Of a DNA stretch of 64,000 nt, positions 6,706 to 31,104 are shown in pieces; position 1 is the stretch's first letter, and the number at the start of each line of letters is the position of its first letter. A program made the translations under genes and the position numbers. The DNA is from a virus. The notes under the pieces were generated by a model. That model saw nothing but the letters and a program-made list of their open reading frames with translations. It made no database searches and was not told where the DNA came from. The DNA is taken from IMG/VR virus record IMGVR_UViG_3300035682_000004; one strand, 5' to 3'.

Positions 6706-8052
6706 ATGAAACCAACATTAAATGAACAATTAGCTCGCATGCAAAAATTAGCGGGTATTATTAAAGAAAATCAATTAAACAAAGATCCAAAAGTAAGTTT
6801 TGGTAAATTTAAAAATGTTGAATACTATAAAGTAGATAATGAACTTTATTTAGTTGTTACTAACAGTGATAATTTTAAAGAAATAGAAAATTCTATGGAT
6901 TTTGGTGATAGAGATTATTTAAAAGATAAAGAAAAATCATTTTTAAATAATACAGTAGATAAATTAGCAGATGAAATGAGTAATTATTTAACTTCTATTG
7001 GAGTAAAAAATGAAGTAGGTGATAGTCCAATAGGATATGGTCAAGAAATTGATAATTTAATAGTTGTTATTAATCCAAATGATTTATCTAAATTAAATAA
7101 TACACAAATGAGCGAAGGTGAAGGTGCTTACGAATATGAAAAAGGTAAAGCAGCTGGTAAAAAAATTGAAAAAGAAAAGATGACTAAATCTAAACTTAAA
7201 GAGCAAATCAAAGAAATGATTTTAGCTGAATTAAATGAAGATTCTACAGAAGATGTTAATATCAATGACACTAGTAATGCTTACGATTTTAATGAATCAA
7301 AAATAGCTGAAGCAGAAGATGGTAATTACAAACTTTTAGATATAAATGATGTTGATCTTGGATCAATTGATGTAGAAGGTAATATATATGATACTGGTTA
7401 TATTTCTTCAGCTAAATTTAACAATGGTGACGAGCTTTCTCTTAACCAACGTGTAGAATTAGAAGATCTATTAGGTAAAGATGAAATAGCTAAATTAATT
7501 AACCTTAATGAAGCTAAAAAAGATAAAGAAGAAGTTGAAGATGTAACAGTAGATGATACTGAAGTAGTTGATGCTCCTGAATCAGATATGATGGCTGGTG
7601 AATCAGCTGAAGTATCAGGTATTCAAGCTAACTTACAAGCGGCATATGCTGAAGCAAAAGCATTAGGTGATGAAAAATTAATCACTCAAATTGCTAATAC
7701 AATTACTTATTTTACTAAAGCTCATATCTTAGATACAGCTCCAATTAATGAAGCTATAAATGATGATAGTGCTAATGCTATATATGATATTTTATCAAAC
7801 ATGGACAATGAAGACATAATAAATGATATGTTTACAGCAATACAGAAAAATCCAGAAATGAAATTAGAAGATTTCTTAAATCAGTATGATGCTGGAGACA
7901 ATCCAGGTGATGATAATGATGATAATTATGATGACAGTATGGATGTTTATGATGATAGTTATCCTAACATAGCTGAAGCTAAAAAAGCTAAAGGTAAATT
8001 AGATCAAATTAATGAAAATATGTTTCCAATGTTAAAAAGAATTTTAAGATAA
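6706..8052 (+). CDS. Acidic modular protein with RMQKLAG tag, putative internal head polyprotein
   Basis: N-terminus MKPTLNEQLARMQKLAGII matches the scaffold C-terminus; many LNE/IAE/INE sites. Confidence 0.6.
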   Translation: MKPTLNEQLARMQKLAGIIKENQLNKDPKVSFGKFKNVEYYKVDNELYLVVTNSDNFKEIENSMDFGDRDYLKDKEKSFLNNTVDKLADEMSNYLTSIGVKNEVGDSPIGYGQEIDNLIVVINPNDLSKLNNTQMSEGEGAYEYEKGKAAGKKIEKEKMTKSKLKEQIKEMILAELNEDSTEDVNINDTSNAYDFNESKIAEAEDGNYKLLDINDVDLGSIDVEGNIYDTGYISSAKFNNGDELSLNQRVELEDLLGKDEIAKLINLNEAKKDKEEVEDVTVDDTEVVDAPESDMMAGESAEVSGIQANLQAAYAEAKALGDEKLITQIANTITYFTKAHILDTAPINEAINDDSANAIYDILSNMDNEDIINDMFTAIQKNPEMKLEDFLNQYDAGDNPGDDNDDNYDDSMDVYDDSYPNIAEAKKAKGKLDQINENMFPMLKRILR

Positions 8053-9428
8053 TGAAACAAAGCATCACTGAAAGACTATTAACTCCTAAGGAATTAGAAA
8101 AACGTGATCAGGTTATTAAACAACTTAAAACAAAAAAATCATCGTTAGTAAAACGTTATGGTAATATTGCTGAAAAAGTAATGTATGGACGTGCTACTAA
8201 TATAGCTAAAAAAACAGTAGAAAACATGAATAAAGATAAAGTACGTGAAATGATTAAGAAGACTCTTATGGGTCCCGTAGGTGGTGAATTCCCTGACTTA
8301 AGTGGTGATAATGAAGTGACTCGAAAAGATATTCTAATAGGCAGAGGAGTTAAATTTAAAAACGAAGACATTGATTTAGGTCATCAAGATGATGAACCAG
8401 ATATGTTAAAAGCATCTGTTTATCGTATAGCACAATACGCTGCTGGTTTATATAAAATGCTAGACAAGTATGATCAAATGGATCAAGAAGTTGATTTTCC
8501 TGATTGGTGGCAAGAAAAAATTCATTTAGCTGCTGATTATATGGACAAAGCTAAACATTATTTAGAATTTGAAGAAAAACAACCAGCTTTAGATGCTATG
8601 ATTCAAGAAGAATCTAAATTTTTCGCATCAAAAGAAAATGTTAATCTTGAATTAGTACAAAAAGTAGAAGACTTTATTAGAGAAGTAGCTCAAGATTATG
8701 GTTACGGTGTTGATGATGCTTACTTTGCTATTATGCAGGTTCTTAAAGCTGGTTTAGTAAACGAAGGAGTAAATGAAGAAGAAGCAGAAGCTAAAGATGC
8801 AGTAGATACAGTTACTATGGATGTACCTTTATTTATTCGTATGTTAGAATTTGCTCGTGAAGACGCTAAAGCAGATATGGATTTACATGATGTAGCTGAA
8901 AAAGCTATTGAAATTAATAAAAGTAAAGAAACATTATCAATGCAGGATTACGAAGATATTATCCCAGTAATGGATGAACCAATGGATGAGGCTACTGATG
9001 CACAAGAAGAATATAGAGTTAAATCATCTAAACCAACACAATTTAAACAGGATATTGCAGCAGCTAAAAAAATGATTGATGCTGGAAAATCGGAAAAAGA
9101 AGTAGTGTCAAAATATAGTCAAGCAGTTTTCAATGCTGTAAATGCACAGAACATGGATGAAGTTAAATCTTCAACAAACTCAACATTAGCTGAAAAGATA
9201 ATGGCTAAACTTAAAAAACCAATGGTTAAAGAAGAAGCCACAGAAGGTGAAAAGTGGGTAGTATGGATCAATGTAGATAAAACCGGTAAAAAATTAAGAC
9301 ATACTTTAAATTCAAAAGCTGAAGCTCAAAAAATAGGCCAACGAGTAAAAAATAATTATTATGATGATTATGATACTGAAGTAGGTATGATGAGTTTATC
9401 AGACTGGAACAAAGAAAATAAAAACTAA
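8052..9428 (+). CDS. Modular hypothetical protein, putative internal head polyprotein
   Basis: Short modules (EF-hand-like DLSGDNEVTRKD; MDVPLFIRMLE) separated by xxE sites. Confidence 0.55.
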   Translation: MKQSITERLLTPKELEKRDQVIKQLKTKKSSLVKRYGNIAEKVMYGRATNIAKKTVENMNKDKVREMIKKTLMGPVGGEFPDLSGDNEVTRKDILIGRGVKFKNEDIDLGHQDDEPDMLKASVYRIAQYAAGLYKMLDKYDQMDQEVDFPDWWQEKIHLAADYMDKAKHYLEFEEKQPALDAMIQEESKFFASKENVNLELVQKVEDFIREVAQDYGYGVDDAYFAIMQVLKAGLVNEGVNEEEAEAKDAVDTVTMDVPLFIRMLEFAREDAKADMDLHDVAEKAIEINKSKETLSMQDYEDIIPVMDEPMDEATDAQEEYRVKSSKPTQFKQDIAAAKKMIDAGKSEKEVVSKYSQAVFNAVNAQNMDEVKSSTNSTLAEKIMAKLKKPMVKEEATEGEKWVVWINVDKTGKKLRHTLNSKAEAQKIGQRVKNNYYDDYDTEVGMMSLSDWNKENKN

Positions 9429-9907
9429 TGGTAAAAGAAGACTTTAAAAATAGAATACGCGCTATTGTAAAGCAAGTTTACAAAGCCCAATCTAAAATAG
9501 ATTTAGATGTTCCTAAAACAGATATTTCTTTAGATTTGGATAAGTTTCCTATTTTAGCTAAATTCCCTACATTACGTGATTCTATCATTCAATTATTAAC
9601 AACTCAATATAAAGATTTTGTTAGTGAGATACAATGGATAGCACCTAAACCAACAACATTTAAAATATTATTAGCAAACAATCAATTCTTTTACTTACTA
9701 TACGATGACATCACATGGATTTGTAAATCAGAAGGTAAAAAATATTGGTTAAATGATATAAAAGACGAAGGGCGGGCTACAGAGTCTATAGCTAGATTAT
9801 TATCATATGGTGCTTCAAAAGATGCAAACGCATCATTTAAAGATTCAGGTGATGAAGCAGCTACAGAACCAGGCCCAGCAGAAGCATCGGTTCCAGCAGA
9901 AGCATAA
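9428..9907 (+). CDS. Hypothetical protein
   Basis: TAATG-coupled ORF. Confidence 0.55.
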   Translation: MVKEDFKNRIRAIVKQVYKAQSKIDLDVPKTDISLDLDKFPILAKFPTLRDSIIQLLTTQYKDFVSEIQWIAPKPTTFKILLANNQFFYLLYDDITWICKSEGKKYWLNDIKDEGRATESIARLLSYGASKDANASFKDSGDEAATEPGPAEASVPAEA

Positions 9908-9913
9908 TAAACT

Positions 9914-10624
9914 ATGGCTAATTTAGAAACATACGGTGATTTAAAAAAAGCTATTAGAAATATACAGCTAACCAAGAAAACAGGAAGTGTTGGCTCTAAA
10001 GCATTAGATGTAGGAATAGAAGCAGCTATAGATGCTGCTAAAACAATAATACCGGGTATAGGGACAGCAAAATCAGCAGTTGACTTTATTAGAGCATTTG
10101 TTAAAGCCCCAGATACTAAAAAAACAAAAACTTGGTTAGATAAATTACAAGTAGATGATGAAACAAGTGCTATAATTGATGATACTGTTGAAAATGGATT
10201 TATACAATTAATAACTAAAGCTATTGAATCTGAGCCAGATACAAAATCTTTAGAAGATGATTTTAATATGAATGCTAAACTAGTAGATTATCTTAAAAAT
10301 ACATACGCAGGTAGAACAATAACCGGAATACAAGAAAATATTATGAAAAAGTCAGAACTTAAAACATTAATAAAAGAACAAATTTTAGAAATCACTATTG
10401 ACAGTCCAAAACTTCAAGGTCAAATTAAAACAGATGTATGGGACGATTTAAAAATTAAAGATTTTAATCGTTCAAACTTTAATAATACTATTAGTTTAGT
10501 AAAAAATAAAAAAATGTTAAATACAGCTGCTAACACAATATTAGCGAATACTTTTATTGCTTTATTAAACGCTAATGATGAACAATTACGAAATGCATTT
10601 AATAATTTAAAACAATTTAAATAA
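9914..10624 (+). CDS. Hypothetical protein with an internal amphipathic tag
   Basis: IQE-NIMKKSELKTLIKEQILE. Confidence 0.55.
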   Translation: MANLETYGDLKKAIRNIQLTKKTGSVGSKALDVGIEAAIDAAKTIIPGIGTAKSAVDFIRAFVKAPDTKKTKTWLDKLQVDDETSAIIDDTVENGFIQLITKAIESEPDTKSLEDDFNMNAKLVDYLKNTYAGRTITGIQENIMKKSELKTLIKEQILEITIDSPKLQGQIKTDVWDDLKIKDFNRSNFNNTISLVKNKKMLNTAANTILANTFIALLNANDEQLRNAFNNLKQFK

Positions 10625-10651
10625 TAATTTAAAGCAATTTAAAACAAAATA

Positions 10652-11704
10652 ATGGATCCAATCGATAAGTTTTTAAAACAATATTCTTATAAATTTCCTA
10701 AAGGATATCCTGACATGAAGAATGAACAGGATATTTTATTAATGGAATCATTATTAAATAATTTAGGTATTAGTTTAAAAGAAGAAGAAAAAAATTATGA
10801 TGATGAAATTTTAAATCTTTTAACATCTTTATCTGATGATGAATCTAAAAAGAAAGTAGTTAATTTTTTAAATAAAATAAACAGCAAAGAAGATAAAGAA
10901 GACGAAAAGTTAGAAGAAAATATAACAAAGGAACTTAATAAAAAAAATATAACAGGCAATGTAGCAGATCAAATTATATTTTACGCTGACAAAGCAAATC
11001 AATTAGATGAATTATCAACCTATATGTCTAAACCAACAGTTAATCATTCTGATTTATTAAATAATAATAATCTTTTAAAATTATTTTCTCCAATTCCTCT
11101 TTCAGATACATTTAAAGATAAAATAATTGATATGCCTGGAGCAATAAACAATGTTACTTTTGGTAAAGGCGAATTAGCATTAATTACATTTTTAAAAGAC
11201 GCAGTAAAATATAAATCAGGCAAAGATAGTGAAGATACAAGCGGTGATATAGGTATAGATGGTCATGTATTAGAAGTAAAAAGAGGTAAATCTATTATAG
11301 CATCCGCTAATTATATTAGCAGAGCAAAAAAAGTAGATCTTTTTAAAGGAGATAAATCTAAAAAATTTATTGAAGAATATAATATTGACCTTAAACCAGG
11401 AACACCTTGGATAAAATTAGTTCAACAAACTGGAGCAGATAAAACTGAAATAGAAGATATATTAACAGAATTATATCCAGGGTTAAAAATTAACGTAGAT
11501 ATATCAACTCCTAAATCTTTAAATGATTCTATAGGATTGGCATTAGCTGAAGGTTATTTAAAAAATAAAGAGTTATTATTTATAAATGATCAAAATAATT
11601 ATATTTGTATTGAAAGTTTTAATAAATTTAAAGAAGCAATAGAAAATGGTATACTAGTATTCCAACTAGCATCAGATATTAATCCTAGATGTTATTTAGC
11701 TTAA
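10652..11704 (+). CDS. Putative PD-(D/E)xK restriction-endonuclease-fold protein
   Basis: GKGELAL...SGDIGIDGHVLEVK. Confidence 0.45.
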   Translation: MDPIDKFLKQYSYKFPKGYPDMKNEQDILLMESLLNNLGISLKEEEKNYDDEILNLLTSLSDDESKKKVVNFLNKINSKEDKEDEKLEENITKELNKKNITGNVADQIIFYADKANQLDELSTYMSKPTVNHSDLLNNNNLLKLFSPIPLSDTFKDKIIDMPGAINNVTFGKGELALITFLKDAVKYKSGKDSEDTSGDIGIDGHVLEVKRGKSIIASANYISRAKKVDLFKGDKSKKFIEEYNIDLKPGTPWIKLVQQTGADKTEIEDILTELYPGLKINVDISTPKSLNDSIGLALAEGYLKNKELLFINDQNNYICIESFNKFKEAIENGILVFQLASDINPRCYLA

Positions 11705-11706
11705 CA

Positions 11707-11714
11707 TATTTATA
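11707..11714 (+). promoter_or_regulatory. Putative late promoter TATTTATA (very short or absent leader)
   Basis: Motif ends 3 nt before the ATG at 11718. Confidence 0.5.
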
Positions 11715-11717
11715 ATC

Positions 11718-12365
11718 ATGAATAAATTAAAACAACTTATCTCAGAAACTTTGCAAAATTACAAAGTAACCGATTCATGCAAACACTGCAATACACCGCC
11801 TTTACTCGTAGAGTCTAAGCAGTACAATATGGCGATATCTGAGGCGATGCGTTACCATATAGACAGTAAAATACAGCTTACTGAGAATATATACCGCCCA
11901 GGCAGTTTCGCTCATCAAAAATTATTGACTGAAGCGAGAATGTTATGGTCTAAAGGTATTATTGAATTACAAGGTACAGATAAAAAAATATTTGAACGAA
12001 CAGATATTGGTAGATGGGCAAAATATGAAGGTGAATTTGTACCTTTAGATTTACCATTAATGGAAATAATAACTGAAGCTAAATACCAAGGTAAAGAAGT
12101 AGCATTAGGTAAACCAAAACGTGGTGGATCTAAAAAATTCTACGTTTATGTTAAAGACGGTGATAAAGTTAAAAAAATATCATTTGGCATGGCTGGTGGA
12201 GCTTTAAGAGCAAAACTAAACAATCCTAAAGCACGTAAAGCATTTTCAGACAGAATGAATTGCCCACAAGCTAAAGATAAAACAACAGCACGTTACTGGT
12301 CATGTAGATTACCTCGTTATGCTAACTTATTAGGATTTAAAACTACATTTACCGGTTTTTGGTAA
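11718..12365 (+). CDS. Hypothetical protein with a basic C-terminal module, putative head protein
   Basis: Leader MNKLKQLISE; ITE then AKYQGKEV..KKFYVYVK..ARYWSC. Confidence 0.55.
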   Translation: MNKLKQLISETLQNYKVTDSCKHCNTPPLLVESKQYNMAISEAMRYHIDSKIQLTENIYRPGSFAHQKLLTEARMLWSKGIIELQGTDKKIFERTDIGRWAKYEGEFVPLDLPLMEIITEAKYQGKEVALGKPKRGGSKKFYVYVKDGDKVKKISFGMAGGALRAKLNNPKARKAFSDRMNCPQAKDKTTARYWSCRLPRYANLLGFKTTFTGFW

Positions 12366-12376
12366 TACTTACAATT

Positions 12377-12745
12377 ATGAAACTATCAGAAATTAAAAAA
12401 GCAATTAAAGAAGAATATTCATCATCAAAAAAAGTATTAGCTATTGGTGGTGTAATTGTTATCAATCCTAAAGTTGCTAAAATGAAATACATTTTATCTG
12501 ATGTTAGAGCTGTGTTAGGCGTAACTATTGTTAATAATAGAGAATATCAATCAGGTAATCCATCATCACAATATGAATATGCTTATTTAGATATTAAAAT
12601 TGATCCATCACCATTCCCTAAAGGATTAAATGATACAGCTACTATTGTAACTAAAGTAGAAAAAGATATTAAATCAATTCGTGGTGTAGTTACATTTAAA
12701 TTAAAAGAAAAAGCACGTGATGCTAAAACTTGGACTATATCATAA
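12377..12745 (+). CDS. Hypothetical protein (ATG start preferred over the TTG at 12359)
   Basis: Leader MKLSEIKKAIKEE. Confidence 0.55.
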   Translation: MKLSEIKKAIKEEYSSSKKVLAIGGVIVINPKVAKMKYILSDVRAVLGVTIVNNREYQSGNPSSQYEYAYLDIKIDPSPFPKGLNDTATIVTKVEKDIKSIRGVVTFKLKEKARDAKTWTIS

Positions 12746-13797: not shown

Positions 13798-14111
13798 TTA
13801 ATCTTATTCAATTATTAACTGAAGCTAAAGAAAGTTTTGAAACATTTGCTAAAAATCGTTTAGCAGGCGCTGAAAAAATCATAGCAAATGCTAAAGAAAA
13901 AGGCGGCGATGCTTTATTAACTTACACTCACTTTAATGTAAAACCATCTTACTATAAAAAAGCTATAAAAGGTAAATTTGATAAAGAAGCAGCTAAAAAA
14001 GAATTTGATGAAACCTATAAAAAAATATCATTAGATATGACTCAAAATGAATTCCAACGTGAAGTTGGTCGTTTAGAAGTATTAGGTGAATTGTTAATTA
14101 GAGAAAAATAA
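13794..14111 (+). CDS. Hypothetical protein, putative internal head protein
   Basis: Leader MINLIQLLTE. Confidence 0.55.
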   Translation: MINLIQLLTEAKESFETFAKNRLAGAEKIIANAKEKGGDALLTYTHFNVKPSYYKKAIKGKFDKEAAKKEFDETYKKISLDMTQNEFQREVGRLEVLGELLIREK

Positions 14112-14116
14112 ATAAA

Positions 14117-14551
14117 ATGAGTAACTTTGATTTAAGAAAGTATTTAGCTGAAGGTAAATTATATGAGGCTGCTATGGCTTGTCCTTTACCTACTCAAAAT
14201 TTAGAACTTAATACTAAAAATAGAGACTCAGCTATTAAAGCAGATTATATTAAATATGGTCCATTAAATGTTGATGAACCTGGAGACTTTTGGGATGAAT
14301 TAGCAGAACATTGGGACACAACAGTTGAAGCAGCTGAACAATCTTTATGTGGTAATTGTGCGGCTTTTGATATTTCTCCAAGAATGGAAGACTGTATGCC
14401 TGGCCCACTATCAGATGATGATGGTAGATTAGGATACTGTTGGATGCATAGTTTTAAATGTCACTCAGCTCGTACTTGTAGAACATGGGCTAAAGGAGGT
14501 CCTATAGTTAAAGATGTTATATCTTATGACTGGCAAGAACGTAAAGGATAA
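14117..14551 (+). CDS. Cys-rich hypothetical protein, possibly metal- or Fe-S-binding
   Basis: Leader MSNFDLRKYLAE; CGNCAAF..C..YC..KCHS..TC. Confidence 0.55.
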   Translation: MSNFDLRKYLAEGKLYEAAMACPLPTQNLELNTKNRDSAIKADYIKYGPLNVDEPGDFWDELAEHWDTTVEAAEQSLCGNCAAFDISPRMEDCMPGPLSDDDGRLGYCWMHSFKCHSARTCRTWAKGGPIVKDVISYDWQERKG

Positions 14552-15081: not shown

Positions 15082-15085
15082 TTAA

Positions 15086-15346
15086 ATGAGACCATACACT
15101 GACATAGAAGTTACAGATGAATATATTATTCGTGAATTTAATGAAAATATAGACCCAATTGAACTAATGTGGCATCGTGATGATGAAGATAGAACAGTTG
15201 AAGTAATAGGTAAAACAGATTGGCAATTACAACTTGAAAACCAATTGCCAACTTCTATAAATCAGCCCATATTTATACCAAGACACGAATGGCATAGAGC
15301 CATTAAAGGAACAGGAAATTTAAAATTAAAGATATATAAAAAATGA
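15086..15346 (+). CDS. Small cupin-like protein
   Basis: WHRD..; IFIPRHEWHR..KGTGNLKL cupin-like pattern. Confidence 0.5.
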   Translation: MRPYTDIEVTDEYIIREFNENIDPIELMWHRDDEDRTVEVIGKTDWQLQLENQLPTSINQPIFIPRHEWHRAIKGTGNLKLKIYKK

Positions 15347-15612
15347 AACCAACATTAAACGAACAATTTATCCGCATGCAAAAAATAGCAGGTGTAATTA
15401 ATGAAAACCAAATTAATGAAGATGATATATTTAATAATCAATATTCAGTTAGTAATGAAGCATATGGAATGATGGATAGTTTAGTTAATGAAAATGACTA
15501 TGATAACTTTATTCAATCCGCTACTAATATAATGACTACATTAACAGATAATGATTTTGAACCAAAAGACGTATTTTACTATCTTTACACTAGATTAACA
15601 GCTGAAGTATAA
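15343..15612 (+). CDS. Small acidic protein with RMQKIAG tag
   Basis: MKPTLNEQFIRMQKIAGVINE. Confidence 0.6.
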   Translation: MKPTLNEQFIRMQKIAGVINENQINEDDIFNNQYSVSNEAYGMMDSLVNENDYDNFIQSATNIMTTLTDNDFEPKDVFYYLYTRLTAEV

Positions 15613-15623
15613 TAATTAAACAT

Positions 15624-16673
15624 ATGAAACAACTATTAAACGAACAATTCCTTAGAATGCAAAAATTGGCAGGAATTATTACGGAAAATCAATATAGAAA
15701 AGTATTATTAACTGAAGTAACTGACCAGATATCAGGAAAAGATGGTGTTATTATTTTAGTATCAGATTATGCTAAAAAACATATTATGGAGCATAATAAA
15801 CCAGGTATGGGTTCAGTATTTAAAACTGGTGTTACTGAGGATGAAATAATAAATATGGTTAAAGAAGTAGCTCCTAAAGTATCAGGAGACGGTGGGGCCT
15901 ATGAATTAAATAAATCAAGTATAGGATATGATCTAGTTTTACCTATGGATAAAGCTAAAGCATTAAAAGACGCTAAAGAAGATGAAGTAGAAAAACAAGA
16001 AGGTCCTAATAAAGTAAAAGTTTCTTCAATTACAACATCACAACCTTTATCTGATTTTTCATCTAATAGAATATCATTAATTATTAGAAAATCTAACCCT
16101 CAGTTCTTACCTGATGATATTAAAACAGACACTGAAATAGCTAAAAAAATTGAAGAAGGTAAATGTTACTCATTATTAACCGCGTTTCCTGGTAATCCTG
16201 ATATTCCAAAAGCATCAGAATGGAATGGAAAATTTGCAATAATTATTCCTAGTGGAATTAAAGAAAACATGGATAATTGGGGAAATGAGACAGATGATCG
16301 TGGTGGAAATGAACAAGATTATAAACCAAAACCTAGCTTAGCTGATTTTGATTATAATAAAGAAGAGTATAAAAAATACATGGAAAAATACTTCCCAGAA
16401 GAACCATTAAATGAAGGAAGGCAATATTTTCATAATGGAGCTGAAATGAATCAAATTATTAATTATGATGATAGTGATATAATAGATGATCTAGAAGCAT
16501 TAGGCCAAGGATCAATGGATGGACAAGACTTTAAACCAGGAGAAACATATGATATTGGTGGAAATGAATACAAAATAGAATCTCAAGGAGATGAATTTAA
16601 ACTTGTATTAGCGGAATCAATTAATTCAATAGTAAATAAAGCTTTAAAATCTTATCGTAAATTAAATAACTAA
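15624..16673 (+). CDS. Modular protein with RMQKLAG tag
   Basis: MKQLLNEQFLRMQKLAGIITE; domains bounded by LTE, IKE, LNE and LAE. Confidence 0.6.
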   Translation: MKQLLNEQFLRMQKLAGIITENQYRKVLLTEVTDQISGKDGVIILVSDYAKKHIMEHNKPGMGSVFKTGVTEDEIINMVKEVAPKVSGDGGAYELNKSSIGYDLVLPMDKAKALKDAKEDEVEKQEGPNKVKVSSITTSQPLSDFSSNRISLIIRKSNPQFLPDDIKTDTEIAKKIEEGKCYSLLTAFPGNPDIPKASEWNGKFAIIIPSGIKENMDNWGNETDDRGGNEQDYKPKPSLADFDYNKEEYKKYMEKYFPEEPLNEGRQYFHNGAEMNQIINYDDSDIIDDLEALGQGSMDGQDFKPGETYDIGGNEYKIESQGDEFKLVLAESINSIVNKALKSYRKLNN

Positions 16674-16679
16674 CATACA

Positions 16680-21448: not shown

Positions 21449-21785
21449 AGAAATTCTTAAATTTTTAGGATACATAGGATTAGTGTTATTAATTGTAAAT
21501 ATTCTTAACATTAATCCTAATTTCCGTTTGGCTAAAGAAAACGAAGCATTAAATAATAAAATAGATTCACTACAAGCAAATATTGACTCTACTAAAATTA
21601 AAATTGCCCAATTAGATTCAGTTGCTACTGTTTATAAAAAACAAGTAATTGAAAATAAAACCAAATTATCGGGTTTAAAATATAAAGCCGATTTATATAA
21701 AACTAAATACAATGAAGAACATAATCGTATTAATAACTTGTCTAATGATGCCCTTGTTAGTGAGTTCACAAACGCTTTCAACTGA
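21438..21785 (+). CDS. N-terminal TM + coiled-coil protein, possible spanin-like lysis protein
   Basis: TM helix then heptad coiled coil; overlaps the next gene by 74 nt. Confidence 0.4.
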   Translation: MLYKEILKFLGYIGLVLLIVNILNINPNFRLAKENEALNNKIDSLQANIDSTKIKIAQLDSVATVYKKQVIENKTKLSGLKYKADLYKTKYNEEHNRINNLSNDALVSEFTNAFN

Positions 21786-22122
21786 GGATTTAGTTACAGT
21801 TCCTGCTAAAACATTAAAAAACGCTTTAATTGTAAAAAATGAACGTGATTATCTTAAAAATCAAATCACAGTAGTTAGAGATTCAGTTAATATTTTAGTT
21901 ACAATTACAAATAATCAAGATTCTATTATAAAAAATCAAGACACATCAATTTCATTATATAAAAAAATTGATACAGATCGTCAAAAACAATTAGAATATA
22001 AAGATAATATTATTACTGATAAAGATAATATTATTACTGATTACCAAAACCAAATAAAAAAATTCAAATTAAAGTTTATAGTTAGTTCTATTGCTTTTGT
22101 TGGTATTTTACTAGTTATATGA
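21712..22122 (+). CDS. Signal peptide + coiled coil + C-terminal TM protein, possible spanin-like partner
   Basis: MKNIIVLITCLMMPLLVSSQ; C-terminal FIVSSIAFVGILLVI. Confidence 0.4.
   Translation: MKNIIVLITCLMMPLLVSSQTLSTEDLVTVPAKTLKNALIVKNERDYLKNQITVVRDSVNILVTITNNQDSIIKNQDTSISLYKKIDTDRQKQLEYKDNIITDKDNIITDYQNQIKKFKLKFIVSSIAFVGILLVI
22000..22041 (+). repeat. Perfect 21-bp tandem duplication (KDNIITD x2)
   Basis: aaagataatattattactgat repeated twice. Confidence 0.9.
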
Positions 22123-23696
22123 GTCAAGACTTACGTGAAGTTATAAGACAGGAATATGTAAAATGTGCCTCTGATCCGGCTCATTTTATGAAGAAATACT
22201 GTTATATCCAACATCCTCAAAGAGGAAGAATCATGTTTAATCTATATCCATTCCAGGATAAAGTATTAAATTTATGGAAAGACAATCCATACAGTATAGT
22301 ACTTAAATCAAGACAATTAGGTATTTCAACACTATCTGCTGGTTATTCTTTATGGTTAATGTTATTCCATAAAGATAAAAACGTACTTTGTATTGCTACA
22401 AAGCAAGAAACCGCTAAAAACATGGTAACTAAGGTAAAATTTATGTATGAAAATTTACCATCATGGTTGAAAGTAACAGCGGATGAAAATAATAAACTTA
22501 CATTACGATTAAATAACGGATCTCAAATTAAAGCAGTATCAGCTGCTGGTGATGCAGGTAGATCTGAAGCTGTATCTTTGCTACTAATTGACGAGGCCGC
22601 ATTTATTGAAGGTATTGACACAATTTGGGCTTCTGCTCAACAAACCTTAGCTACAGGTGGTGGTGCTATTGTATTATCTACTCCTTATGGTACAGGTAAT
22701 TGGTTCCATCAAACATGGGTTAAGGCTGAAGCACAACAAAACGATTTCTTACCTATTAAATTACCTTGGTTTGTCCATCCTGAAAGAAATGAAGCATGGA
22801 GAAAAAAACAAGACGAATTATTAGGTGATCCTAGATTAGCATCTCAAGAGTGTGATTGTGATTTTAGTACTTCAGGAGATACAGTATTTTATTCAGAATG
22901 GATTGAATTTATATCTCAAACTACAATAAAAGAACCGCTAGAACGCCGCGGAGTTGACCGTAACTTATGGATATGGGAACCGGCGGACTACACTCAATCA
23001 TATATGGTTATAGCCGATGTAGCACGGGGTGACGGCAAGGATTTTTCCGCAGCTCATGTTATACATGTTGAATCAAATACACAAGTAGCAGAATATAAAG
23101 GTCAATTACCACCTAAAGAATTTGGATTTTTCTTAGTTGGCTTAGCTACAGAATACAATCAAGCTTTATTAGTAGTAGAAAATGCTAATATTGGTTGGTC
23201 AACATTAGACGCAGTTCAAGAACGTGGATATAAGAATTTATATTTTTCGCCTAAAAGTGATGCTGGAAATAATGCTGATGCTTATTTTGACCAATATATG
23301 GATAATTCAAAATTAGTACCTGGTTTTACAACATCACTGAAAACTCGTCCTTTAATAGTTAATAAATTTAGAGAGTATATAGGTGATAAAAGTGTTGTTA
23401 TTCAATCTAAACGTTTACTAGAAGAAATGAAAGTATTCATTTGGAAAAATGGTCGTCCTGAAGCACAATCAGGATACAATGATGACTTAATTATGAGTTT
23501 TGCAATTGGAATGTATTTAAGAGATACATCATTAAGATTTAAATCACAAAACCTAGAAATGTCTAGAGCAACATTAAGTAATATGTCTGTTAACAGAACA
23601 GGATTTACAGGTGCTTATGGTTCTAATGTTCCTAACCCATATAGTATAGAAAATGGTATGGGTGGAAATGAAGACATTAGTTGGTTAATACGATAA
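22119..23696 (+). CDS. terL: Terminase large subunit (T4 gp17-like)
   Basis: KSRQLGIST Walker A; LLLIDEAAF Walker B; STPYG; ADVARG; NDDLIMS. Confidence 0.95.
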   Translation: MSQDLREVIRQEYVKCASDPAHFMKKYCYIQHPQRGRIMFNLYPFQDKVLNLWKDNPYSIVLKSRQLGISTLSAGYSLWLMLFHKDKNVLCIATKQETAKNMVTKVKFMYENLPSWLKVTADENNKLTLRLNNGSQIKAVSAAGDAGRSEAVSLLLIDEAAFIEGIDTIWASAQQTLATGGGAIVLSTPYGTGNWFHQTWVKAEAQQNDFLPIKLPWFVHPERNEAWRKKQDELLGDPRLASQECDCDFSTSGDTVFYSEWIEFISQTTIKEPLERRGVDRNLWIWEPADYTQSYMVIADVARGDGKDFSAAHVIHVESNTQVAEYKGQLPPKEFGFFLVGLATEYNQALLVVENANIGWSTLDAVQERGYKNLYFSPKSDAGNNADAYFDQYMDNSKLVPGFTTSLKTRPLIVNKFREYIGDKSVVIQSKRLLEEMKVFIWKNGRPEAQSGYNDDLIMSFAIGMYLRDTSLRFKSQNLEMSRATLSNMSVNRTGFTGAYGSNVPNPYSIENGMGGNEDISWLIR

Positions 23697-23704
23697 TATT
23701 TATA
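23697..23704 (+). promoter_or_regulatory. Putative late promoter TATTTATA
   Basis: Immediately upstream of the portal gene. Confidence 0.6.
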
Positions 23705-23723
23705 ATTAATAACATATAATAAA

Positions 23724-25601
23724 ATGGCAGACAAAGGCTTATTTTCACGATTACAACGACTATTCTCTACTGATGTAGTGATGAGAAATCAGGGTGGTGA
23801 TCAATTAAAAGTAATGGACGTTAACACCATACAACAAACTGGTGATATCGCTACTAACTCATTAATGGATAGATATAATAGAATCTATTCAACTAATGCA
23901 TCTTCACTTTATGGAGCTCAATTAAATTTAAATTACCAATACTTACGTACCCAATTATATTCAGACTATGATATCATGGATCAGGATGCAATTGTTGGTT
24001 CAGCATTAGATATTGTAGCTGATGAATCTACATTAAAAGATGATATGGGTGAAGTATTATCTATTCGTTCATCAGACGAAAACATTCAAAGAATTTTATA
24101 TAACTTATTTTATGATGTATTAAACATTGAATTTAATTTATGGTCTTGGATTCGTCAAATGTGCAAATATGGTGACTTTTTCTTAAGATTAGAAATTGCT
24201 GAAAAATTTGGTGTATATAATGTTATTCCATACACAGCATATCATATTGAAAGACAAGAAAATTATGACAAAGACAAACCAGCATCTGTTCGTTTCCAAT
24301 TCAGACCTGAAGGATTTTTATCAGGTGATGGTTATTACAACACACCTAATTTAGGTCGTCAAAATGAACCAGGTATTTTCTTTGAAAACTATGAGGTAGC
24401 TCACTTTAGATTAATCACAGATGTTAACTATTTACCATATGGTAGATCTTATCTAGAACCAGCTCGTCGTTTATATAAACAATACGCATTAATGGAAGAT
24501 GCAATGTTAATCCATCGTGTAGTTCGTTCACCAGAAAAACGTACTTTCTTTATTAATGTTGGTTCTATCCCGCCTAATGAAGTTGAAGCATTTATGCAGA
24601 AAACTATTAGTTCAATGAAACGTACTCCATTAATGGATCAAAAGACAGGTGAATATAATGTTAAATATAATATGCAAAACTTACTAGAAGATTTTTATAT
24701 TCCAGTAAGAGGTAATGATCAGGCGACACGTATTGAAAATACTAAAGGTTTAGATTACGATGGTATTCAAGACGTTGCATATTTAAGAGATAAGTTATTC
24801 GCAGCATTAAAGGTACCTAAAGCATTTTTAGGTTACGATAAAGACTTACAAGGTAAAGCAACATTAGCAGCAGAAGATATTCGTTTTGCTCGTACAATCG
24901 ATCGTATTCAACGTATTACATTATCTGAATTATATAAAATTGCATTAGTACATTTATATGTTCAAGGTTATACTAACGATGAATTAACTAACTTTGAGTT
25001 ATCATTAACTACACCGTCTATTATATACGATCAAGAACGTATCATGTTAATGAAGGAAAAAGTTGATTTAGCTAAAAACATCATTGAAACTAAATTAATG
25101 CCTACTGATTGGGTTTATGACAATGTATTCAGATTCTCTGAAGATTCATATGATGAATATAGAGATATGATGATTGAAGATGCAAAACGTGAATTTAGAA
25201 TTGCACAAATTAGAGAAGAAGGTAATGACCCAGTAGAAACAGGTAAATCTTATGGTACACCACATGATTTAGCTAGTTTATATAGCAAAAACGGCGGACC
25301 AGAAGGTGAATTGCCACCAGGATATGACAATGATACACAATTAGGTCGTCCAAAAGAAAGAGTATCTAATATTAATACACAGGATAACGCATTAGGTCGC
25401 GATAGATTAGGTGTTAAAGATATGAAATCTGATGACCAATCAGGATATGGTAAATCAACAGCTAAACCATTTGCTTTAGAAAGTGCTAAATCAGCTTTTG
25501 CAAGAAATAAACGTTTGTTTGAACAAGTTGACAAAAAATTATGTCTTAGTCAAGAAAAACCAGGAGATTCGCTATTAGATGAATCCCAAATTAGAGAATA
25601 A
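23724..25601 (+). CDS. Portal protein (T4 gp20-like)
   Basis: LMEDAMLIHRVVRSPEKRTFFINVG; EDFYIPVR; ALKVPK; EDIRFARTI. Confidence 0.93.
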   Translation: MADKGLFSRLQRLFSTDVVMRNQGGDQLKVMDVNTIQQTGDIATNSLMDRYNRIYSTNASSLYGAQLNLNYQYLRTQLYSDYDIMDQDAIVGSALDIVADESTLKDDMGEVLSIRSSDENIQRILYNLFYDVLNIEFNLWSWIRQMCKYGDFFLRLEIAEKFGVYNVIPYTAYHIERQENYDKDKPASVRFQFRPEGFLSGDGYYNTPNLGRQNEPGIFFENYEVAHFRLITDVNYLPYGRSYLEPARRLYKQYALMEDAMLIHRVVRSPEKRTFFINVGSIPPNEVEAFMQKTISSMKRTPLMDQKTGEYNVKYNMQNLLEDFYIPVRGNDQATRIENTKGLDYDGIQDVAYLRDKLFAALKVPKAFLGYDKDLQGKATLAAEDIRFARTIDRIQRITLSELYKIALVHLYVQGYTNDELTNFELSLTTPSIIYDQERIMLMKEKVDLAKNIIETKLMPTDWVYDNVFRFSEDSYDEYRDMMIEDAKREFRIAQIREEGNDPVETGKSYGTPHDLASLYSKNGGPEGELPPGYDNDTQLGRPKERVSNINTQDNALGRDRLGVKDMKSDDQSGYGKSTAKPFALESAKSAFARNKRLFEQVDKKLCLSQEKPGDSLLDESQIRE

Positions 25602-25612
25602 TAATCCTTATA

Positions 25613-25620
25613 TATTTATA
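25613..25620 (+). promoter_or_regulatory. Putative late promoter TATTTATA
   Basis: Intergenic recurrence. Confidence 0.6.
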
Positions 25621-25636
25621 ATAAAACACTTTAGGA

Positions 25637-26491
25637 ATGATTGTTAAACATTCAAAATACAAGAATACTGGCATTTTATTTGAGCTTTTAGTTAGACAAA
25701 TCACGTCTGATACATTGTCAGGCGTAGACTCAAAAGCGGCAACTATTCTAAAAAAACACTTTGTAAAAACAGAGTTAGGAAAAGAGTATAAGTTATATGA
25801 AACGTTGTTAAACAACATTAGACTAAGCGAAGGCAAAGCAGATATCATTATTAATACTTTATTAGAAAGTGGTAAATATTTAAACAGATCAGCATTACGT
25901 CGTCAAAAATATAATTTAATTAAAGAAATTAAAGCAAATTATAACGTTGATGAATTTTTTAAAACTAAACTCCCTAATTACAAAACACAAGCAGCGTTCT
26001 ATACATTATTAGAAATGTATGATGGTATTAACCAACCAGAAGCTAATCAAGTAATCTCAAATAAATTAATTCTATTAGAACATTTAACTTCAGCACCACT
26101 TACAACAGTTGCTAAAGATACATTAATGGAAGAATTTAAGTCATACGATAAAGATATTCGTATGTTAACTTATAGAGCGTTATTAGAAAAATTTAATTCT
26201 AAATACGCTAATTTAAATGAAGGACAAAAATCAGTATTAAAAGAATTTATCAATAGTGTTGATAATCCATCTAAATTAAAAGATTTTTACAATACTAAAG
26301 TAACAGAAATTAAATCTGACTTAACTAAATTAAATAAAAAAGTTAAAGACAAGACAACTCAAATTAAAATTAATGAGGTGTCTAATATTTTAGTTACATT
26401 AGAAAAAAATGACAAAATTAGTAATGATGATATGACTAATTTACTTCATTACTATGAATTACTAGAAGAATTACATAAAGTAAATGGATAA
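25637..26491 (+). CDS. Hypothetical head-morphogenesis-region protein
   Basis: Lies between portal and protease; helical. Confidence 0.6.
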   Translation: MIVKHSKYKNTGILFELLVRQITSDTLSGVDSKAATILKKHFVKTELGKEYKLYETLLNNIRLSEGKADIIINTLLESGKYLNRSALRRQKYNLIKEIKANYNVDEFFKTKLPNYKTQAAFYTLLEMYDGINQPEANQVISNKLILLEHLTSAPLTTVAKDTLMEEFKSYDKDIRMLTYRALLEKFNSKYANLNEGQKSVLKEFINSVDNPSKLKDFYNTKVTEIKSDLTKLNKKVKDKTTQIKINEVSNILVTLEKNDKISNDDMTNLLHYYELLEELHKVNG

Positions 26492-27029
26492 TTTAAAACG
26501 TATTATTAAAGATACATTAAAAAAGATATCTGAAGAGTCAGGCACAGGAGGTGGAGCATCAGCTGGTGCTTTTAGCCCAGGTGAAGGACCACAAACAGCA
26601 GAAAAAGTAAAAAAAGAAGGAACCGATGCTGCTTATAAAAAAAATACTAATTCTAAAGGTACAACAAATAATATTTATGTTAAAAACTTTAAATATAAGT
26701 TAGTTAACCAAAAAGCATTAAATAAACAGGCAAAGGGAATTGAAGTTAAACAAATGTGGAAAGAAAATGTAAACGAAGCACAATTAGATGTAGACGCTTA
26801 TATTGATTCTTTAAACATAGATAAACCAGAATTAAAAACATTTATCAAATCTAGATTAGAAGGATTTGATACATTAGAACAAAAATTAAACGAATTATTA
26901 CCATTATTACAAAACGCAAAACAAAAAACATTAGATTACTATAAAAATAATCCTAATTTTAATGTATTATATGGTACTGATTTAGCAAACGATTATTTAA
27001 ACGACTTAATAAACTTATTTAAAGACTAA
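26484..27029 (+). CDS. Hypothetical protein, putative internal head protein
   Basis: Leader MDNLKRIIKDTLKKISEE; VNE boundary. Confidence 0.55.
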   Translation: MDNLKRIIKDTLKKISEESGTGGGASAGAFSPGEGPQTAEKVKKEGTDAAYKKNTNSKGTTNNIYVKNFKYKLVNQKALNKQAKGIEVKQMWKENVNEAQLDVDAYIDSLNIDKPELKTFIKSRLEGFDTLEQKLNELLPLLQNAKQKTLDYYKNNPNFNVLYGTDLANDYLNDLINLFKD

Positions 27030-27030
27030 T

Positions 27031-27255
27031 ATGGCAAATATACCTGTTAACACAACCGGAATAGTAACTACAACATCAATCACTGGTTCATACGCTGGCT
27101 TTACAGTAGTATCAGGCTCAGCTACCTTCACTGGTATAAAAGATTTTAATGGAAATTCATTAACAACTCCTTGGGTTGTACCTGCAGGATTTACTGTACC
27201 TATTTATGTAACTAGCGCTTCTTTATCTTCAGGAGCAGTATTATTTTACAATTAA
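27031..27255 (+). CDS. Small beta-rich virion or decoration-like protein
   Basis: Thr/Ser-rich; TGS, SGS and SAS motifs. Confidence 0.5.
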   Translation: MANIPVNTTGIVTTTSITGSYAGFTVVSGSATFTGIKDFNGNSLTTPWVVPAGFTVPIYVTSASLSSGAVLFYN

Positions 27256-27268
27256 TAACTCATTATAA

Positions 27269-28636
27269 ATGAAAACATTACAAGAACAATACATCCTTAT
27301 TAAAGAAGGAAAAGGAAATAAAGATCATTTCTTAAAACAAGCAAAAAATCTATTTCCTGAATATATTAATCAGTATTCTAGCTACGATTCTACAGTAAGT
27401 GTACTTAAATCAAAAAGTATCTTAAGTGAAGGTATTGGTGGTGTGATTAGTCACAAACCATCTCCATCATGGTTAGAAATATTTAGAGAAAATACAAATA
27501 ATGAAGCAGTAGATATGACTTCAGCTCCTTCTGGTCCATTTGGAGATGCTATAGGTTGGATATCACGAAGTAATGAGTATGGTAAAAACTTATTAATGAG
27601 TAACGGTATTACTAAAGCGGATGACGCTATTATTTTATTTAAAGCACTTAAATCCGGAAAAATTACAGAAGAAAATCTTAGTAAGGTTATAATGGCTGGT
27701 GGAAAGAGATTTACTGATACTGAAACATGGATAAAAGATATGAAACCTCTTTTAAAAAAGGCTAATGAACCAAATACAGTGAAAGAAGGTAATAATCTTA
27801 GTGTTAAATTAAGTGATGGTTCTGAAATCCAAAAAGGTAGTAAAGCTAAAATAAATGACGAAGTAGTAACAATTGTAAATATTACTAAAGTTGGTAACCT
27901 TAAGCATATTACAGGTAAAACTAAAGATGGTAGAGAATTATTAGCAAAAGGTAGTGCTTATGTATCTTCATATGACTCTAAAGAAGAAAATCTATCAGAA
28001 GTTATTGGTGTTCCAAATAGAAAAACATACGGTGACTATGATGAGTTTGCAAAACCATCTAAACAAGTTCAAAAAGATTTAGCTGATCAATTTGATAATG
28101 AAGATAAGAAAAATATTGACAATGTTTATGGTACATCTTTCTTAAATGGCTACTATGCTGAAATGAAAGATCCTAAAAACAAAACTAAAACAGTAGACGA
28201 ATTAAAACAAATTGTACTTAAAAACATGGTTAAAGACATAAACTATTATGCTAAAAATGCTATGTTTGGAACTAAAGGAGTAGGATTTAAAACTGAAAAA
28301 TTAACAATTGCACCTAAAGGTAAATATAAGTCAAGCGGATATGGTGATTTACCTAAAACTAAAACTATTAAAGAAAGTATCCATGACCTAGATATATTAT
28401 TAAGACCTCTTTCAAACCCAGATTTTCCACCATTAACGCGATCACCTGAAGAGTTAGGTAAAGAGGCAGATAATAGATCTGAAAACATGTTGTTAATGAA
28501 ATACCAAAAGCAAATTAATGATCGTAATATAACAGATGATGAATTGAGAGATATATTAAGTGGTCAAGGTGTTAAGGGATTTGGAGGAAGAAAAAATGCA
28601 ATTGAAAAAATTATAAGTAATAGAAATACAAATTAA
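27269..28636 (+). CDS. Modular hypothetical protein, putative prohead core or internal protein
   Basis: MKTLQEQYILIKE (resembles the T4 CTS MKTYQEFIAE); LSE, VKE and IKE boundaries. Confidence 0.55.
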   Translation: MKTLQEQYILIKEGKGNKDHFLKQAKNLFPEYINQYSSYDSTVSVLKSKSILSEGIGGVISHKPSPSWLEIFRENTNNEAVDMTSAPSGPFGDAIGWISRSNEYGKNLLMSNGITKADDAIILFKALKSGKITEENLSKVIMAGGKRFTDTETWIKDMKPLLKKANEPNTVKEGNNLSVKLSDGSEIQKGSKAKINDEVVTIVNITKVGNLKHITGKTKDGRELLAKGSAYVSSYDSKEENLSEVIGVPNRKTYGDYDEFAKPSKQVQKDLADQFDNEDKKNIDNVYGTSFLNGYYAEMKDPKNKTKTVDELKQIVLKNMVKDINYYAKNAMFGTKGVGFKTEKLTIAPKGKYKSSGYGDLPKTKTIKESIHDLDILLRPLSNPDFPPLTRSPEELGKEADNRSENMLLMKYQKQINDRNITDDELRDILSGQGVKGFGGRKNAIEKIISNRNTN

Positions 28637-28642
28637 CGTAAT

Positions 28643-29248
28643 ATGAGACAAGTATTAATTGAAACACAATTATTCTCACCCAAAGCTGTTAGCTTAACTG
28701 AAGGAACTAATCCTGGAGGTAACCTATTAGTAAAAGGTGTATTAGCTACTGTCGAAGTAAAAAACGGTAATGGTAGATATTACGCTAAAGAATTATGGGA
28801 ACGTGAAATGGATCGCTACATGGAATCAATTCGTGAGAATAGAGCTTTAGGTGAATTAGACCACCCAGATTCTTCAATTATTAACTTAAAAAATGTTTCA
28901 CATAATATTAAAAAATGCTGGTGGGATGGAAATAATGTAATGGGTATGATTGAAATCTTACCTACTCCATCTGGTAACATTTTAAAAGCATTAATCGATA
29001 GTGGTATTACAGTAGGTGTATCATCAAGAGGAATGGGTTCATTAGAACAAAAAGGTAATGTAATGGAAGTACAAGATGACTTTGAATTACTATGTTGGGA
29101 TTTCGTTTCAACACCTTCTAATCCGGGTTCATGGATGCTACCAACTAGCTTAAATGAATCATATATTCCTAGTATAAATCAATACAGTAAAATTAATTCA
29201 ATTATTACTGATATTTTATGTGCTAATGGATCATGTCCGTTATTCTAA
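28643..29248 (+). CDS. Prohead protease (T4 gp21-like)
   Basis: KNGNGRYY; ALGELDHP; VSH; GVSSRGMGS; WDFVSTPS. Confidence 0.93.
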   Translation: MRQVLIETQLFSPKAVSLTEGTNPGGNLLVKGVLATVEVKNGNGRYYAKELWEREMDRYMESIRENRALGELDHPDSSIINLKNVSHNIKKCWWDGNNVMGMIEILPTPSGNILKALIDSGITVGVSSRGMGSLEQKGNVMEVQDDFELLCWDFVSTPSNPGSWMLPTSLNESYIPSINQYSKINSIITDILCANGSCPLF

Positions 29249-29249
29249 C

Positions 29250-29843
29250 ATGAAAAATTTATTTCTAGTAATATTAATTTGTCTATCAACAGTAGTTTTT
29301 GGACAAACTAAATTAAGAGATAGTGTTAACTATCAAACTCCTAACTTCCGTATTGTTTATTCTGAAATTTTAGAACAACCTAAATGGGTTACCTACACAG
29401 TTAAATGTCCTACAGGTACTGCTTCTAGAGCAAGTATGGAATTCTACACAGACAAAAATATTAAAACATCTGATAACGAAGATTATGTTAATAATGAATG
29501 GGATAAAGGACATATTGCTCCTGCTGCTTCATTTAATTGTACTAAAGAAATGTTATACTCAACATTTACCTATATTAACTCAGCAATGCAACAACAATCA
29601 CTTAATCGTGGTCCTTGGAAAACATTAGAAATATGGGAACGTGAACAAGCTAAAACTACAACAGTATCAGTATATGTTAGATTAGATTATGATAAAGTAC
29701 CTAAACGTGTACCTACAAACGCGGCGATACCTAAAGGATTTTATAAAGAATTAAAAGTAGGTAATACTAAGTATTGTTATTATTTTCCTAACATCGCCCC
29801 TACATCAAAAGACTTAAATACGTTTAAGTGCAATTGTAAATAA
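29250..29843 (+). CDS. DNA/RNA non-specific endonuclease (His-Me finger) with a Sec signal peptide
   Basis: ATG at 29250; MKNLFLVILICLSTVVFG; WDKGHIAPA; QSLNRGPWK; IPKGFYK. Confidence 0.85.
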   Translation: MKNLFLVILICLSTVVFGQTKLRDSVNYQTPNFRIVYSEILEQPKWVTYTVKCPTGTASRASMEFYTDKNIKTSDNEDYVNNEWDKGHIAPAASFNCTKEMLYSTFTYINSAMQQQSLNRGPWKTLEIWEREQAKTTTVSVYVRLDYDKVPKRVPTNAAIPKGFYKELKVGNTKYCYYFPNIAPTSKDLNTFKCNCK

Positions 29844-29848
29844 AACAT

Positions 29849-29877
29849 GGCTCTTCCAAAAGAAGAGCTTTTTCTTT
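29849..29877 (+). terminator. Intrinsic terminator
   Basis: GGCTCTTC-caaaa-GAAGAGCT followed by TTTTCTTT. Confidence 0.7.
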
Positions 29878-30015
29878 GCACTTCTGTGCATTTTTAGAAA
29901 ATCCGGACATATGTATATTAGAATATACTGCCCGCAATCGCATTTGCAGTATCTATAAATAACAATTCTATTACACTTCAAATAAGTGTATTTCCCAAAC
30001 AAAATTTTAGGACAA

Positions 30016-31104
30016 ATGAGTAAAAACAGAGATTTGCTTAAAGAAGCAATCGAAGATGCTAAAGTTGTTAAAGAAACAGCAATAGCAAGCGCAAAAGCTG
30101 CTCTTGAAGAACACTTTACTCCACAATTAAAATCTATGCTATCAGCTAAACTTGCAGAAATGGAAGAAAAGGAAGAGGCAGAAATGGACGATAATATGGA
30201 AGAAATGTATTCTAAAAAAGATGAAAACTTAATGGGCTACAAACCAGTTAAAAAAGAAGAAATTGAGTATGATCACGGTAACATCGACACAGAAGAAGGT
30301 AACCCGTTAGATGAACTTAATCTTGAAGAATTATTAGCTGAATTAGAAGAAGACATGGAAAAAGAATCCGCGTATGAAGCTAAAGAAGACGACAAAATGA
30401 AGAAAGAAGAATTAAACGAAGCAGAAGGTGAAGAAGAAGTTGAAACTGAAGAAGAAATCAACATCGAGGACATGACTGAAGAAGAGTTAAAATCATTCAT
30501 TGAAGACGTAATTAAAGACATGGTTGAAGCTGGTGAATTAGAAGCTGGTGAAGGCATGGAAGACATGAAAGGTGAAGAAGGTGAAGAAATGGAAAGTGAA
30601 GAAGAAGAAATTTCAATTGATGAAATTTTAGCTGAAATCGAATTAGATGAAGCTAAAAGAAAAAAACTAATTAAATCAAAAGACGAAGACAAAAAAGACA
30701 AAGAAGACGAAGAAGACAAAAAAGAAATCAAAAAACTTAAAAATGAGTTAGAAGAAGCTATGTCTACTATTTCTACTATGAGATCTGATATCAATGAAGT
30801 TAATTTGTTAAATGCGAAATTACTTTACACTAACAAAATTTTCAAAGCTAAAAACTTAACCGAGTCACAAAAAGTAAAGGTTTTAAATGCATTTGATAAA
30901 GCATCAACAGTAAAAGAAACTAAATTAGTATTCGAAACATTATCAGAAGGATTAAAAGAAACTTCTAAATCACATGTTAATGAATCATTAAAAACTAGTT
31001 TAGCATCTAAAACAACAGGTATCATGCCAACAGCAAGAAAGCCTATTGTAGAAGTTAATGACACATTCAAAAGAATGCAAAAAATAGCAGGAATTATTAA
31101 ATAA
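30016..31104 (+). CDS. Prohead scaffold/core protein
   Basis: ATG at 30016; very acidic coiled coil directly before the MCP; ends RMQKIAGIIK. Confidence 0.8.
   Translation: MSKNRDLLKEAIEDAKVVKETAIASAKAALEEHFTPQLKSMLSAKLAEMEEKEEAEMDDNMEEMYSKKDENLMGYKPVKKEEIEYDHGNIDTEEGNPLDELNLEELLAELEEDMEKESAYEAKEDDKMKKEELNEAEGEEEVETEEEINIEDMTEEELKSFIEDVIKDMVEAGELEAGEGMEDMKGEEGEEMESEEEEISIDEILAEIELDEAKRKKLIKSKDEDKKDKEDEEDKKEIKKLKNELEEAMSTISTMRSDINEVNLLNAKLLYTNKIFKAKNLTESQKVKVLNAFDKASTVKETKLVFETLSEGLKETSKSHVNESLKTSLASKTTGIMPTARKPIVEVNDTFKRMQKIAGIIK

Follow-up and report, generated by a model that had tools for sequence, protein, structure and literature searches.

The stretch analyzed here, IMG/VR record IMGVR_UViG_3300035682_000004 (64,000 nucleotides (nt), G+C content 32%, hereafter the window), belongs to a T4-like phage of aquatic Flavobacteria. 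It encodes a gp20 portal, a gp21-type protease of the S77 family, a scaffold and a gp23 capsid protein, and its nearest named relative is Flavobacterium phage immuto, with ~71% nucleotide identity over the head genes. The subject of this report is a short peptide, RMQK(I/L)AG(I/V)I, that closes the scaffold protein and recurs near the N-terminus of three otherwise dissimilar proteins (cargos 1 to 3), where it probably acts as a removable tag for entry into the prohead.

The scaffold gene of the head module

The open reading frame (ORF) at 30016-31104 was named scaffold because of its position, between the S77 protease gene and the gp23 capsid gene, and because of its acidic composition. We used the ATG at 30016 as the start; the ORF finder lists an alternative upstream GTG at 29986. 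The ORF had no Pfam or PHROG match, and hhalign comparison of a profile of the relatives' scaffolds with T4 gp22 gave a weak local match (E 7e-4, probability 26%, 33 columns). An N-terminal Q-x-IAEA is common to the relatives' scaffolds and T4 gp22; the scaffold of the window starts MSKNRDLLKEAIEDA.

A peptide shared by the scaffold tail and three gene starts

A six-frame regular-expression scan of the window returned exactly four matches to RMQK(I/L)AG(I/V)I and no others, for a chance expectation of ~5e-5 matches calculated from amino acid frequencies and none in 200 shuffles. One copy is the C-terminal end of the scaffold, which finishes ...NDTFKRMQKIAGIIK before the stop codon at 31102-31104. 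The other three begin at residue 11, after 10 residues, of ORFs 6706, 15343 and 15624, each of which opens with a 21-residue leader containing the motif. Translation and scan thus agree with an earlier note on this DNA, which had placed the motif at the scaffold end and at three gene starts. The nine residues that it described are present, but the similarity among the four copies is wider and spans 14 residues, N-(D/E)-x-(F/L)-x-RMQK(I/L)AG(I/V)I.

Copies of this 14-residue module differ by 1-5 synonymous codons and share 30-33 of 42 nt. Since the four copies vary at synonymous codons, the peptide itself, and not only the DNA, is conserved and under selection. As the earlier note had also reported, ORFs 6706 and 15343 are identical over their first 17 nt, and what follows the leaders is unrelated: once the tags were removed, the three payloads and the scaffold body had no significant similarity to one another by BLASTP (best E 0.5-1.3).

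Directly after the motif, the leaders read I-K-E (ORF 6706), I-N-E (ORF 15343) and I-T-E (ORF 15624). The cleavage consensus of T4 gp21 is L/I-x-E, and such a site closes the capsid targeting sequence (CTS) of T4, an N-terminal propeptide (PMC9026906). A predicted I-x-E cut site directly after each N-terminal tag, to which the earlier note does not refer, is the strongest single clue to the role of the tag, and the S77 protease of the window is the presumed tag-removing enzyme (Table 1). Residues 2-15 of the cargo 3 tag are helical in an AlphaFold2 model (predicted local distance difference test (pLDDT) 57-72). The hydrophobic moment of the tag module was not clearly above that of shuffled sequences, and we thus make no claim of an amphipathic helix.

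Table 1. Features of the window discussed in the text.
Feature	Coordinates	Strand	Basis or remark
Promoter-like element ATATTTATAAT, 18 nt upstream of ORF 6706	6678..6688	+
All copies of ATATTTATAAT	6678, 11706, 23696, 25612, 33762, 50563, 54922, 59169, 61285	+	23696 portal, 54922 tail fibre, 59169 sheath, 61285 tube
Cargo 1 N-terminal tag, 21 residues, ends I-K-E	6706..6768	+
Cargo 1, 448 amino acids (aa), acidic (isoelectric point (pI) 4.2 without tag), mosaic	6706..8052	+	no known family
Cargo 2 N-terminal tag, 21 residues, ends I-N-E	15343..15405	+
Cargo 2, 89 aa, acidic	15343..15612	+	no known family
Cargo 3 N-terminal tag, 21 residues, ends I-T-E	15624..15686	+
Cargo 3, 349 aa; well-folded domain, residues 30-213	15624..16673	+	AlphaFold2 pLDDT 81
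Large terminase	22119-23696
Portal protein, T4 gp20 type	23724..25601	+	Pfam Portal_T4 1.5e-64
Prohead core serine protease, T4 gp21, Peptidase_S77	28643..29248	+	Pfam 4.9e-30, PHROG 207 1e-56
gp22-like scaffold, 362 aa	30016..31104	+	synteny, composition, 21 (L/I/V)-x-E sites, weak T4 gp22 profile match
I-V-E, candidate protease site 6 residues before the scaffold tail motif	31045..31053	+	fixed distance in scaffold-type copies
Scaffold C-terminal tail module, 15 residues with RMQKIAGII	31057..31101	+	conserved scaffold tails
Major capsid protein, T4 gp23 type, candidate docking partner	31132..32808	+	Pfam Gp23 6e-74

Distribution of the motif in other viral genomes

A scan of IMG/VR with a degenerate DNA pattern encoding the motif retrieved at least 119 loci; the counts in this paragraph are among the matches listed. 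About 100 copies end scaffold ORFs of 320-500 aa that adjoin gp23 genes. Fifty motif-ending scaffold ORFs are followed by a complete gp23-type gene, and in 106 scaffold-type copies the protein stops 0-3 residues past the motif. Residues R, M, Q, K, A, G, I and I are invariant in 87 aligned scaffold tails, a set retrieved by the motif-encoding pattern itself. A further 26 distinct copies stand at the N-terminus of ORFs that are unrelated and 50-518 aa long, some of which end at contig edges. Every one of these 26 has I or L at P3 and E at P1 directly after the motif, and (L/I/V)-x-E lies six residues upstream of the motif in 83 of the 106 scaffold-type copies. Furthermore, a variant of the motif is kept in more distant relatives that were identified through their scaffolds' similarity (Microcystis phage Mel-JY01, a 484-kb phage and jumbo phages).

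A profile search of 1.84 billion proteins with the tag returned 1,303 representatives of 50%-identity clusters. Among the best 150 of these matches, 142 were N-terminal, and a cleavage-type site followed in 139 of the 142 (median length 126 aa). The module also forms the C-terminus of proteins other than scaffolds, just downstream of the site, and lies within polyproteins between two sites.

At three loci (L018, L030 and L090), the tag is internal and precedes a conserved 39-residue C-terminal piece. This piece is also known as a free 60-aa tagged ORF, and these loci thus have the look of fused genes, or of polyproteins, that contain the address label internally.

Tags resemble the scaffold tail of their own genome

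Scaffold tails were paired with N-terminal tags in six genomes. Tags matched their own scaffold at 6.0 of 9 residues, versus 4.7 of 9 for the scaffolds of other genomes; the own-scaffold value was reached in only 2 of 720 label permutations. Q-K-L-A-G is found in both the scaffold tail and the tags of the Flavobacterium-phage lineage, whereas the jumbo-phage lineage has K-D-L-M-G or K-x-M-M-G in both; in a 290-kb jumbo phage, the tail reads R-M-K-D-L-M-G and the tags R-I-K-x-M-M-G and R-M-R-D-L-M-G. One genome has W at position 2 in tail and tag; in another, both have L at position 8. A search for scaffold ends of the variant W-Q-K-L-A-N-I-L turned up only N-terminal tags.

Jumbo phage contigs of 110-290 kb (L153-L160, L174-L188) carry a sister tag family, MNLQENIxRIKQMMGLLTE, at the start of many unrelated ORFs, and the scaffolds of these phages end ...FMRMKDLMGKIK. 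Phage immuto, which is cultured and has Flavobacterium sp. LMO8 as its host, encodes one tagged protein, of 154 aa, with I-I-T-E at the predicted cut site.

The tagged proteins

Neither Pfam nor PHROG gave anything meaningful for the three cargos or for the 26 tagged ORFs, and protein-atlas look-ups returned unnamed viral clusters only. Homologues of cargo 1 join the same leader to at least 9 different downstream sequences; its AlphaFold2 model (pLDDT 43) was too poor for a structure search.

The folded domain of cargo 3 gave middling structural matches (Z 3.7-6.5) to CdiA-CT, RelE, ParE and T4 RegB, the best being to CdiA-CT and the RelE/ParE type (Z 4-6.5), and contains an invariant His within the segment H-I-M-E-H-N-K-P-G. 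The model thus hints, weakly, that this domain may have a BECR-type RNase fold and that cargo 3 may be a packaged RNase. With the model as query, Foldseek found nothing in the PDB at E <= 0.001, and tblastn of the domain against named phages gave no match. The 263 homologues of the domain have interchangeable leaders, all ending in (L/I)-x-E, which include variants of the RMQK type, a T4 CTS-like 10-mer, an N-F-D-L-R-K-Y-L type and further kinds. In a 160.8-kb contig, a tagged cargo 3 homologue lies between the protease and scaffold genes.

A promoter-like element shared with structural genes

The element ATATTTATAAT upstream of ORF 6706 is repeated exactly in the window, with nine copies in total; every copy is on the + strand and lies just upstream of a gene, in most cases a structural one. 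The genes are ORF 6706, ORF 11718, the portal, tail fibre, sheath and tube genes, and three genes of unassigned function at 25637, 33781 and 50582. Because the element is common to the portal, sheath and tube genes, its presence suggests that tagged ORF 6706 is co-expressed with structural genes. The element is a late-promoter candidate in this group of phages.

A probable propeptide for entry into the prohead

The 21-residue leaders are most likely propeptides that, like the T4 CTS, target proteins to the capsid (prohead), and whose core was copied from the C-terminal tail of the scaffold. The proposal of the earlier note that the scaffold tail had become a portable tag finds strong comparative support: the module is carried by numerous unrelated proteins at one terminus or the other, adjoins a protease site and co-varies with the tail. 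During head assembly, the tag would fill the site normally filled by the scaffold tail, and the cargo would be built into the prohead interior along with the scaffold. We consider it roughly a toss-up whether this docking site belongs to the gp23-type capsid protein, at its inner face, as coat binding in the earlier note would have it, or to the scaffold core. The N-terminal ~60 residues of the capsid protein are nearly invariant among 48 relatives. Complex prediction for the capsid protein and the last 45 scaffold residues, each with its alignment, scored 0.00 in a run without controls, which speaks neither for nor against binding.

The gp21-type protease would then cut at the I-x-E directly after the tag, and probably at an L-N-E before it, freeing the cargo in the head. 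A cut at the I-V-E just upstream of the scaffold tail would detach the scaffold likewise. With one cut between tag and cargo and another between scaffold and tail, both proteins would come loose from a single anchor. The freed cargo would stay in the head, and would probably be ejected into the host with the DNA.

Several observations weigh against a targeting propeptide. (L/I/V)-x-E is common in these proteins, and single sites outside the fixed position therefore mean little. The cargos are acidic (pI 4.1-4.8), unlike the basic internal proteins of T4. Co-variation with the tail is loose: the immuto scaffold has RWQK versus RMQK in the immuto tag, and the scaffold of complete genome G002 ends RMKKLAGL while its tags read RMQKLAGII. 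Gene conversion or common ancestry could likewise make the tag and tail of one genome similar. Finally, genome G001 and Mel-JY01 are among those that carry the scaffold motif but no N-terminal tag, and the motif therefore has its main role in the scaffold.

Next to the motif there is always a protease-type site, in scaffolds upstream and in tags downstream, which would also suit a peptide that binds the gp21-type protease at an exosite. The tail of the scaffold would then draw the protease into the core, and the tags would mark substrates for processing or activation at any location; the localization of gp21 itself in T4 is unexplained according to reviews (PMC9026906). However, T4 heads contain ~55-72 copies of the protease versus hundreds of scaffold and internal proteins (PMC9026906, PMC9958956), making the protease a poor stoichiometric anchor, and processing ~1,300 unrelated small proteins outside the prohead would have no obvious purpose. 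We judge such a recruitment signal unlikely. A destination other than the prohead interior, with the helix targeting the portal, a membrane assembly site or a chaperonin, seems to us slightly less probable still. A GroEL-targeting role has been cited for the N-terminus of T4 gp23 (PMC10052503), but the presence of the peptide at the extreme C-terminus of the scaffold and the flanking head-protease sites point to the prohead, and the three tags of the window are devoid of signal-peptide or membrane features.

The mosaic structure of the cargo 1 homologues, with one leader on many downstream sequences, and the 17 nt shared by ORFs 6706 and 15343 would be expected of a recombination cassette boundary, whose 5' sequence is a homology patch for accessory-gene swaps and whose peptide has no targeting role. 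Yet synonymous differences have accumulated while the peptide was kept, the peptide is conserved with different codons across lineages, and a role at the DNA level would account neither for the fixed I-x-E nor for the scaffold's ending in the identical peptide. We thus hold such a boundary to be the least probable of the alternatives.

Comparison with known systems

While the earlier note likened the tag to an encapsulin cargo-loading peptide, the closest precedent for a targeting propeptide is the T4 CTS, found on IPII and IPIII (MKTYQEFIAE), IPI and Alt and removed by gp21. Both are short N-terminal leaders that end in L/I-x-E, precede unrelated hypervariable cargo and accompany a gp20/21/22/23 head module (PMC9026906, PMC3012670). 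They differ in that the tag described here has 21 residues instead of 10, another sequence and acidic cargos, and is an evident copy of the scaffold tail. It bears no resemblance to MKTYQEFIAE, of which the T4 genome contains two exact copies; other, 10-residue leaders of the window are closer. The T4 CTS was reported not to be conserved in other core proteins, and both its docking and the way in which proteins are localized to the core were called mysterious (PMC9958956).

T4 gp22 begins MLKEQLIAEA and ends ...VYAKVASRF; given this tail without the motif, T4 has no tail-type tag. Q-x-IAEA is, however, common to the T4 CTS, T4 gp22 and the relatives' scaffolds. It is conceivable, although we hold it only tentatively, that cargo tags of T4-like phages as a rule copy scaffold termini, the 10-residue CTS deriving from the N-terminus of gp22 and the RMQK type from the C-terminal tail. 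If so, contacts of core assembly, or between core and shell, would double as cargo-loading sites, and the docking partner of the CTS would at last have a name.

A signal for capsid targeting at the N-terminus is also known from phage P1, in which the N-terminal 30 residues of DarB suffice to load a reporter into the capsid (PMC9024508); there, neither a consensus among Dar proteins nor a link to a scaffold terminus has been reported. Encapsulin cargo-loading peptides resemble the tag as short terminal peptides that address diverse cargo to the inside of an HK97-fold shell. They have no sequence relation to it, however, and are kept on their cargo, and encapsulins are without scaffold, portal or maturation protease. 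An encapsulin shell was ruled out for the window, which encodes terminase, portal, protease, sheath and tube.

With a conserved peptide at its very C-terminus, the scaffold recalls those of P22, herpesviruses and phage 80alpha with their capsid-binding tails. In herpesviruses, the scaffold UL26.5 and the protease UL26 have one common C-terminal tail that binds the capsid protein and is released by cleavage at the M-site. A second protein thus enters the procapsid via the C-terminal tail of the scaffold and is released by an adjacent protease cut. The herpesvirus genes are nested in frame and the tail stays C-terminal, whereas here it has moved to the N-terminus of unrelated genes. Likewise, the scaffold of staphylococcal phage 80alpha and CpmB of SaPI1 have a common C-terminal capsid-binding motif, a scaffold peptide reused by another protein. 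This reuse redirects capsid size instead of loading cargo, is C-terminal only and involves no protease site.

A full-text literature search for the motif string found no paper, and a literature search for virion proteomics of immuto likewise found none. As the tag is visibly the scaffold's own tail, it provides a concrete docking hypothesis for proteins entering the core. With ~1,300 distinct tagged clusters, loading of protein cargo would be widespread in uncultured aquatic T4-like phages. Most of these clusters are small proteins without assigned function, which may be delivered into the host with the DNA. Furthermore, the tag would offer a defined 21-residue, self-removing loading signal for a cultured Flavobacterium phage system.

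Other leaders and neighbouring genes

A second class of leaders, of 10 residues ending in L-x-E, is found at the starts of + strand ORFs 3268, 11718, 12745, 13794 and 14551. Like the T4 CTS in kind, they include MIKLINLLKE and MINLIQLLTE and are similar to the N-termini of the scaffold (MSKNRDLLKE) and of the capsid protein (MSTIQSLLE). A leader of a third class, MSNFDLRKYLAEGKLYE, is present at 14117-14551; in other phages, homologues of cargos 1 and 3 have this type in place of the RMQK-type tag.

Between the protease and scaffold genes, the window encodes a DNA/RNA non-specific endonuclease (29226-29843; Pfam Endonuclease_NS 3.6e-23) with a signal-peptide-like N-terminus, and a relative carries a tagged cargo gene in this same slot. 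Directly upstream of the protease gene, a 455-aa ORF (27269-28636) starts MKTLQEQYILIKE, close to the start of the T4 CTS (MKTYQE...), and may encode a core protein or a cargo in the gp67/gp68 slot.

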